A stretch of 5,495 bases of DNA from a virus (lineage: Duplodnaviria > Heunggongvirae > Uroviricota > Caudoviricetes): IMG/VR virus record IMGVR_UViG_638341087_000011. The stretch is one strand, 5' to 3'. The position numbers and the translations under genes were made by a program. This document shows positions 3,679 through 4,257 of the stretch, in pieces (within the stretch, counting starts at the first letter, position 1; the number at the start of each line of letters is the position of its first letter). Below the pieces are notes generated by a model, which saw nothing but the letters and a program-made list of their open reading frames with translations, did not search any database and was not told the DNA's origin.

Positions 3679-4257
3679 ATGAGAGACATTGATGTAAGAA
3701 AGGCTGTGCATGCCAAGATTCTGAGAGATCATCATAAAGATCCTGACACCCTAATCATTGATGAGTTTACGATGAATCTAGGGGCTAGCAGAGCTGATAT
3801 AGCAGTGATCAATGGGCTTATACATGGTTATGAGTTGAAGAGCAAGAGTGATAACTTGCTCAGATTACCAGCGCAGGTGCAACATTACTCATCAGTGATG
3901 GATAAAGTAACTTTGGTTGTCTCTGATTGCCATCTTTATGATGCTTTAAGCATAGTTCCATCATGGTGGGGGATAAAGCAAGTTACGCAAGGTGCACGGC
4001 AAGGTATCCATTTAAAAACAATTCGAACTAGCAAGTTGAATCCACAAGTGGACAAACTTTCCTTAACAATGCTTCTTTGGAAAGATGAATTGCTTTCCCT
4101 ATTAAGTGATGTAGGGGAGCTACAGAATTTGAAAAATAAACCTAAACGCGTCTTATGGTCAAAACTCGCCAATAGTATGGATGTTGGCGAGCTTCGTGAA
4201 GCTGTTCGAGTTAAACTTAAAGCCCGTAAAGAGTGGCGAGTTGCTCAACAACCTTAG
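3679..4257 (+). CDS. Small protein with PD-(D/E)xK-type nuclease motif (E29...D40...E52-x-K54); possibly sce7726/MmcB-like; first gene of the convergent cargo pair
   Basis: ORF-track ORF. The N-terminal region LIIDEF...ASRADIAVINGLIHGYELKSK has the acidic-acidic-ExK arrangement of restriction-endonuclease-fold proteins (D40 codon 3796-3798, E52 3832-3834, K54 3838-3840). GC is low, about 37% in a sampled line. Weak RBS; a possible extended -10 TGaTATAGA lies at 3631-3639. Confidence 0.68.
   Translation: MRDIDVRKAVHAKILRDHHKDPDTLIIDEFTMNLGASRADIAVINGLIHGYELKSKSDNLLRLPAQVQHYSSVMDKVTLVVSDCHLYDALSIVPSWWGIKQVTQGARQGIHLKTIRTSKLNPQVDKLSLTMLLWKDELLSLLSDVGELQNLKNKPKRVLWSKLANSMDVGELREAVRVKLKARKEWRVAQQP

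Follow-up and report, generated by a model that had tools for sequence, protein, structure and literature searches.

Two convergent genes share their last 41 bp

The 5,495-nt stretch of viral DNA analysed here, IMGVR_UViG_638341087_000011 (the window, to which coordinates refer unless a locus or accession is named), carries two convergent genes, an sce7726/Phage_P4_cII-family gene on the plus strand and a Beta-family gene on the minus strand, whose 3' ends are encoded by the same DNA:

3679–4257, plus strand: sce7726/Phage_P4_cII-family gene, 192 aa, PD-(D/E)xK nuclease-like (NF033832, PADLOC, and PF26915 in homologues)
4217–5314, minus strand: Beta-family gene, 365 aa, TIM-barrel protein related to P4 beta and PD-lambda-2C
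4217–4257, both strands: 3'–3' overlap of 41 bp (open reading frame list, sequence, RefSeq ends)

According to the list of open reading frames (ORFs), the two frames converge and share positions 4217–4257. The plus-strand gene stops with TAG at 4255–4257 and the minus-strand gene with TAA, which reads TTA on the plus strand at 4217–4219; this TAA lies opposite the final two bases of the sce7726 L180 codon and the first base of the K181 codon. Each gene has 12 sense codons and its stop codon within the shared 41 bp, approximately the 13–14 codons per gene that had been proposed in an earlier note on this DNA, and the ORF list, the stop codons and the RefSeq ends concur in the overlap of convergent gene ends that the note had described. 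The RefSeq/PGAP annotation of Escherichia coli 2013C-4991 ends both genes identically (locus L001, 8280–8858 on the plus and 8818–9915 on the minus strand), and both gene starts fit the alignments of homologues.

An antisense run-on of 13 codons is unsurprising ((61/64)^13 ≈ 0.5), and a lone convergent overlap of 41 bp is not beyond chance. What does exceed chance is the presence within the overlap of invariant residues of both proteins (K181, R183 and W186 of sce7726; L359 and L362 of Beta) combined with an overlap and a register that recur across 63–71 of 73 unique loci. The ordinary length of the run-on could equally be expected of a chance or annotation artefact, in which one of the ORFs is drawn too long and its true product stops short of the shared DNA; the last four to five residues of sce7726 are unconserved and predicted to be disordered, and natural variants shorten this tail, as such an artefact would also allow. 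We nevertheless rejected this explanation as extremely improbable: there is no in-frame stop before 4255 on the plus strand or before 4219 on the minus strand, and an artefact is contradicted by the (near-)invariant residues of both proteins inside the overlap, by the confident helices modelled at both ends, by the register kept in 63 of 73 loci, and by a codon bias characteristic of dual coding.

Family membership and predicted folds of the two proteins

The plus-strand product belongs to NCBIfam family NF033832 (sce7726), which it matches with 191.1 bits against a cut-off of 70 over residues 1–184 of 192. It also matches the PADLOC 'cll' model (E = 2.4e-28), and PF26915 (Phage_P4_cII) is precomputed on its homologues; on these profile matches, the sce7726 family is the same family as P4 cII. 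Residues D40, E52 and K54 are invariant across an alignment of 32 diverse homologues. The AlphaFold2 (AF2) model has a predicted local distance difference test score (pLDDT) of 93.6, and its best PDB matches are the PD-(D/E)xK-type nucleases SfsA, splicing endonuclease and NucS, all of them weak (SfsA, E = 0.011, template modelling score 0.34). The model places helices at residues 169–181 and 184–187, followed by residues 189–192, for which the pLDDT is below 50 and disorder is predicted.

The minus-strand product is a member of Pfam family PF14350 (Beta_protein), with 175.7 bits against a threshold of 27 and profile positions 1–341 of 342 covered. It is close to the PD-Lambda-2_C models (E = 6.5e-41) and more distantly and weakly related to the PADLOC 'beta' model of P4 (E = 1e-3). 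Its model (pLDDT 92.7) is a TIM barrel ending in a long helix, residues 340–363. The ends of both proteins are structured in the models.

The overlap and its register recur in distant relatives

To follow the junction beyond E. coli, we used the sce7726 alignment as the seed of a survey and collected 80 loci from one-genome-per-species contigs, namely the best 80 of 450 sce7726 matches, all at least 39% identical to the query. Six-frame ORFs of the loci were searched with hidden Markov models (HMMs) built from the sce7726 and Beta alignments. The loci come from Enterobacterales, Aeromonas, Vibrionaceae, Xanthomonadales, Burkholderia, Alphaproteobacteria, Myxococcota, Desulfobacterota, Acidobacteriota, Gemmatimonadota, Chloroflexota, Firmicutes, Actinomycetota, Patescibacteria, Melainabacteria and Armatimonadota.

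Beta is the immediate convergent neighbour of sce7726 in 82 of 85 loci; the other three gave no Beta match, and in two of these the contig ends a few hundred bases past the sce7726 gene. Convergent overlap is present in 71 of the 73 unique two-gene loci and spans 11–167 bp (median 53), which answers positively the check on homologous pairs that the earlier note had called for. The two genes are therefore genuine ORFs that overlap at their 3' ends and retain this arrangement in orthologous pairs, that is, a conserved convergent overlapping gene pair. A Beta-seeded search of IMG/VR viral contigs likewise returned a convergent overlapping sce7726 gene at every complete locus. Existing annotations also contain the pair: Gordonia phage Powerball has it with an 89-bp overlap and an sce7726 gene called 'exonuclease', on plasmids of Rhodococcus, Bacillus, Agrobacterium, Sinorhizobium and Rhizobium a single match covers annotations of both products, and three further E. 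coli contexts carry overlapping annotated pairs.

The register of the junction was measured through the two independent HMM alignments, as the distance from the codon equivalent to sce7726 W186 (4234–4236) to that equivalent to Beta H351 (4262–4264). This Trp-to-His spacing is exactly 28 nt in 63 of the 73 unique loci, the exceptions being 31 nt (three loci), 52 nt (one), 67 nt (four), 68 nt (one) and undefined (one). The register is kept in relatives from more than 10 bacterial phyla, including Proteobacteria, Firmicutes, Actinobacteria and their phages, Acidobacteriota, Chloroflexota, Myxococcota, Patescibacteria and Melainabacteria. Among 52 representatives, defined as loci below 85% nucleotide identity, pairwise identities have medians of 43% (sce7726), 29% (Beta) and 43% (anchored DNA), and GC content ranges from 32 to 71%. 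On a neighbour-joining (NJ) tree of the concatenated proteins rooted with P4, Fitch parsimony assigns the 28-nt state to the ingroup root, with about four later departures.

Two side observations concern the records themselves. In Gordonia phage DumpsterDude (L002), the sce7726 gene at 2432–3133 on the plus strand (HMM E = 4e-65) is unannotated, and a 216-bp ORF on the opposite strand (2678–2893) is called instead; the missing gene is probably a mis-annotation caused by the overlap. Identical loci occur in metagenome-assembled genomes labelled Bradyrhizobium, Afipia and 'Bordetella parapertussis' (L023–L028, L032), and a Nocardiopsis contig (L072) is nearly identical to Stenotrophomonas loci, which suggests contamination, mis-binning or very recent transfer.

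Dual constraint is concentrated in about one third of the overlap

The junction divides into three parts:

4229–4242, both strands: dual-coding core, sce7726 K184–V188 (W186 at 4234–4236, R187 at 4237–4239) and Beta Q358–L362 (conservation profile, codon counts)
4240–4257, plus strand: unconserved C-terminal tail of sce7726 (VAQQP and stop), antisense to conserved codons of the Beta helix
4217–4228, minus strand: final three Beta codons (YGL) and stop, antisense to the conserved sce7726 L180–K184 codons

Per-position conservation of the 52 representatives follows the plus frame upstream, with codon positions 1 and 2 conserved and position 3 free, and the minus frame downstream, the switch falling at W186/R187. 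Positions 0–5 and 8 relative to the Trp codon carry 0.93–2.0 bits. In the core (approximately 4229–4242), wobble bases of the minus strand lie opposite second codon positions of the plus strand and the reverse, and both frames are constrained.

Codon usage at the core bears this out. The Arg187 codon is CGA in 29 loci and AGA in 17, such that 46 of 47 Arg codons end in A, and it is CGA in all 11 loci of more than 60% GC. Arg183, which is equally conserved, uses all six Arg codons, with 13 of 51 ending in A (Fisher p = 9e-15 against Arg187). The wobble A of Arg187 is fixed because the Leu/Ile359 codon of Beta has it in the middle position. Beta residue 360 is Ala where Arg187 is CGA and Ser where it is AGA, since its codon is read from the GG of the Trp codon and the first base of the Arg codon. 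The T of TGG, in turn, imposes an A-initial codon on Beta residue 361, where T, N, S, K and I are observed. The suggestion of the earlier note that the overlap constrains the co-evolution of the two genes is borne out by the wobble bias at Arg187 and by the way in which Beta 360 follows the choice of Arg codon.

Outside the core, both ends vary. Between −1 and 38 residues (median 6) follow the WR motif of sce7726, in tails that also differ in sequence, and between −1 and 44 (median 3) follow the equivalent of Beta L362. Three near-identical E. coli prophage variants (L097, L101 and L109) carry a C-to-T change at the equivalent of window position 4249 that turns sce7726 Q191 into a stop codon, shortening the tail by two codons and leaving an overlap of 35 bp; in Beta, it is read as the conservative substitution V356I. 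These variants would represent a natural demonstration that the sce7726 tail is dispensable. The dual constraint is thus real for only about 11–14 of the 41 bp, about one third, and the remaining 27 bp or so consist of the unconserved, partly disordered C-terminal tails of both proteins. The variation in overlap length reflects the position of the stop codon in the reading frame of the partner.

Both the restriction of the dual constraint to 11–14 bp and the family-wide nature of the feature had been missed by the earlier note. We also thought of recognition between the two C-terminal helices as sense–antisense peptides but discarded it, as the frames are shifted by one base and the residues are thus not codon-for-codon complements.

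Both C-terminal motifs survive uncoupling of the core

Coupling is wholly or nearly lost in five loci: the two genes of L015 lie 14 bp apart, and those of L016–L019 have a 39-nt in-frame displacement that leaves them overlapping by only 11 bp, outside the conserved core. All five keep the LK.R..W(R/K) ending of sce7726 and the NHH...QL..L motif of Beta, and Beta residue 360 is freed from its restriction to Ala or Ser, with T, N and S seen. Since the two motifs survive without a common core, each protein end is selected in its own right, and the two ends are independently functional. A further locus, L014, has a 39-bp gap and a Beta C-terminus that seems degenerate.

Relation to gop-beta-cII, PD-lambda-2 and ordinary convergent overlaps

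The gop-beta-cII locus, part of the non-essential region of the satellite phage P4, contains the same two families (beta, PF14350; cII, sce7726/PF26915) tail-to-tail on opposite strands and, like the window pair with its mobile setting, occupies a mobile-element hotspot. gop-beta-cII guards against lambda and P1, and P4 gop and beta act like a toxin–antitoxin pair (PMC9122126; Rousset et al, 2022). The window has the adjacent, convergent beta and cII homologues of this system, but P4 has a third gene, gop, upstream of beta, of which a tblastn search found no homologue in the window or in about 140 fetched loci other than P4. In addition, P4 cII has 264 aa and is only about 28% identical to the window sce7726 protein over part of its length, and P4 beta and cII do not overlap, being separated by a 27-bp gap with an annotated terminator, whereas the window pair overlaps by 41 bp.

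The three components of PD-lambda-2 are a HigB-like protein (A), an Xre-peptidase (B) and a member of the Beta family (C), the last of which is required for defence (PMC9519451; Vassallo et al, 2022). The window Beta protein resembles this system through its match to the PD-Lambda-2_C models, but the published definition comprises three genes without an sce7726 gene, and no ORF for A or B flanks the pair in the window or in L001. Nine to eleven surveyed loci, including L022 (4558–6140, minus strand), L044, L049, L054, L060, L061, L076, L078 and L082, have a four-gene PD-lambda-2-like arrangement in which Beta is preceded, within a single operon, by HigB_toxin and HTH/Peptidase_M78 genes and followed by an sce7726 gene that converges on it and overlaps it. 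The cloned ECOR42 PD-lambda-2 fragment (Vassallo et al) extends only 396 bp past gene C, which would not accommodate an intact sce7726 gene.

A full gop-beta-cII or PD-lambda-2 system in the window was ruled out, as the gop, HigB and Xre-peptidase genes were not found; the cassette is a stand-alone Beta/cII pair. From these comparisons we infer that the Beta/cII pair is the core common to P4 gop-beta-cII and to some, at least, of the PD-lambda-2-like loci.

Convergent overlaps are ordinary in themselves, and both gene families are already known, as is the arrangement in P4. The E. coli reference genome has 75 annotated convergent overlapping pairs (PMC4161906), and 3'-end overlaps have been explained by extension of the 3' end after loss of a stop codon (PMC2716372). 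The window pair is of the same 3'-end kind, but it holds conserved structural residues of both proteins inside the overlap and keeps one register across phyla. Our search, which covered the searchable literature library, found no paper on the beta/sce7726 overlap, or on the Beta/cII pair as a common core of gop-beta-cII and PD-lambda-2-like loci.

Conservation at the junction is protein-coding rather than structural RNA

Convergent genes often have a common bidirectional terminator. Together with the terminator annotated between P4 beta and cII, this would favour an explanation in which the overlap embeds a bidirectional intrinsic terminator or another conserved RNA element and owes its conservation to RNA structure. 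A terminator consensus scan of 3300–5495 found no site near the overlap and a single one inside the 5' portion of the Beta gene. When the −45 to +60 region was folded in the 52 representatives, mean z-scores were −0.13 (plus strand) and −0.14 (minus strand), with an internal control region being more structured; RNAalifold found no consensus pair in the same set, and Rfam at E ≤ 1 returned only a spurious lncRNA match elsewhere in the window. Because there is no terminator, z is near zero, and neither a consensus pair nor an Rfam family was found, the conservation is protein-coding and not that of a structural RNA, in agreement with the codon periodicity seen instead. The embedded terminator was rejected on the scan, the folding and the RNAalifold result, and an RNA element of any of these kinds is very unlikely.

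These results support the earlier note in holding that there is no room for terminators between the genes: intergenic DNA is nil, and no terminator-like site or stable or conserved hairpin was found in or beside the overlap. Its claim that the transcripts are antisense at their 3' ends follows from the sequence, as an mRNA encoding either full-length protein must extend at least 41 nt into the partner gene.

This geometry resembles that of excludons, in which overlapping transcription of opposite-strand neighbours is an established mechanism (PMC12288877). Under such a reading, the selected function of the junction would be regulatory: transcriptional interference and an RNase III-sensitive duplex would make expression of the nuclease-like protein and of Beta mutually dependent or mutually exclusive. 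The convergent orientation of every two-gene locus examined, including P4 and the uncoupled lineages, speaks for it, as do the 3'-complementary mRNAs that are unavoidable without a terminator between or near the genes and the toxin–antitoxin-like behaviour of P4 gop/beta, where dosage control matters. However, excludons are recognised by mapping transcripts, and most have long overlaps of untranslated regions (PMC12288877), whereas here it is the coding sequences that overlap, and a 3' overlap of the transcripts is deduced from the sequence. Antisense coupling requires overlapping transcripts, not codons in a fixed register; P4 has a terminator in its gap, L015 a gap and L016–L019 an overlap outside the core; overlap length varies 15-fold; and no RNA structure is conserved. 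Because selection at the protein level fully explains the fixed register, a regulatory role is not needed, and we consider regulation of the excludon type unlikely to be the function for which the overlap was selected.

A probable ancestral dual-coding junction kept by selection on both proteins

On balance, the 41-bp overlap is probably the local version of a tail-to-tail dual-coding junction of ancestral origin, which defines the Beta/sce7726 (cII-like) pair and is kept by purifying selection on both proteins. The conserved coding regions abut, with about 11–14 bp encoding, in a single fixed register, the final conserved helical residues of either protein, and each tail runs on to the first stop codon, stops being placed where the partner gene tolerates them. 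Such a junction could be kept as a ratchet: with purifying selection acting on both ends, survivors would be in-frame changes that fit both frames, and uncoupling would need a rare insertion or a duplication of the shared segment, of which about four cases are seen in the surveyed clade. The 1.64-kb AT-rich cassette would then be inherited and mobilised as a single indivisible unit. Promoters at its outer ends would fire inward, the cassette would have no terminator of its own, and the two mRNAs, necessarily complementary at their 3' ends, would probably end within the partner gene, through Rho-dependent termination or polymerase collision.

Several points weigh against this interpretation or limit its reach. 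P4, with its gap and terminator, and the few uncoupled lineages show that the overlap is not indispensable. The tree is a simple, rough NJ tree on saturated distances, and 'ancestral' is valid for the surveyed clade only, that is, for sce7726 matches at least 39% identical. Distant sce7726 members (about 29–32% identity) occur without a Beta partner and in other gene contexts, as on the Pseudomonas plasmid Rms163 (L142, 3501–4079) and a Leptospira plasmid (L143, 3426–3986); pairing and overlap therefore define a sub-clade and not the whole sce7726 family. The ratchet accounts for the persistence of the junction, not for the origin of the convergent orientation, and the retention of that orientation after loss of the overlap may point to a selected role for convergent transcription. 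Finally, the expression and the defence role of the cassette are both matters that we infer.

As to function, the cassette would most likely be an anti-phage or conflict module composed of a PD-(D/E)xK nuclease-like protein and a TIM-barrel partner. Its association with defence comprises the PADLOC matches, relatives with demonstrated activity, and accessory sites in prophages, islands and plasmids. More speculatively, the junction itself could be adaptive, with the obligatory 3' mRNA duplex and head-on transcription forming an excludon-like switch that sets the effector/partner ratio, or exclusivity, in a two-gene abortive-infection module, the pair being the ancestral core to which P4 added gop and PD-lambda-2 added HigB and the Xre-peptidase; we hold this to be quite improbable.

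In bacteria, antiparallel coding overlaps of long standing are rare, and they are frequently put down to annotation noise. The Beta/sce7726 junction offers a clean, checkable case, in which two well-folded proteins share their last codons in one register down to about 30–40% identity and across a GC range of 32–71%. The shared bases leave measurable codon-level footprints and make the pair a natural system for studying the limits that dual coding sets on protein evolution. The junction would also explain mis-annotations such as the gene absent from the DumpsterDude annotation, and it suggests that gop-beta-cII and PD-lambda-2 have a common two-gene Beta/cII core that also stands alone in E. 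coli prophages, islands and plasmids. We see it as a well-supported evolutionary feature with a regulatory question attached, and not as the demonstration of a new mechanism.

Genomic setting and occurrence in E. coli

The pair lies in a Qin/Rac-like lambdoid prophage, with Cro/DicC-like, YdaT-like, DnaT-domain replication and DUF977 genes upstream and hokD downstream. The regions that flank it are:

3374–3678, plus strand: non-coding sce7726 leader with a single promoter-like site at 3612–3641 (consensus match only)
5315–5495, minus strand: region upstream of the Beta gene, with no gop, HigB or HTH-peptidase gene

Promoter-like sites in the sce7726 leader are no more numerous than expected from shuffled sequence. 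Upstream of Beta, there is only a 43-aa ORF, followed by hokD as the next gene in L001. The GC content of the cassette (3400–5495) is 33–42%, compared with 50–60% in the replication genes at 800–2400, as expected for a horizontally acquired moron.

A 2.1-kb region containing the cassette is present at 99% identity or more in 93 complete E. coli genomes and in phage Rac-SA53. Stand-alone overlapping pairs also occupy other accessory sites of E. coli: one lies between the lysis gene Rz and the terminase gene Nu1 of a lambdoid prophage (L085, 3134–4763; 59-bp overlap), one in an integrase/YfjJ-type island (L144, 4001–5639; 41-bp overlap) and one on a 171-kb plasmid (CP061267, 37394–37969).

Three small co-directional genes precede the sce7726 leader at 2396–3373, namely the DUF977 gene (2396–2818), an 84-aa ORF (2815–3069) and a 103-aa ORF (3062–3373), which overlap by 4 and 8 bp, as is typical of operon coupling; the 84-aa and 103-aa ORFs gave no family match. 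IS1 interrupts the cassette region in Rac-SA53 (14626–17496), and in Acinetobacter NDM-1 plasmids, among them A. pittii pNDM-AP_882 (L141, 4527–6394), IS30 truncates Beta and the adjoining sce7726 gene is intact.
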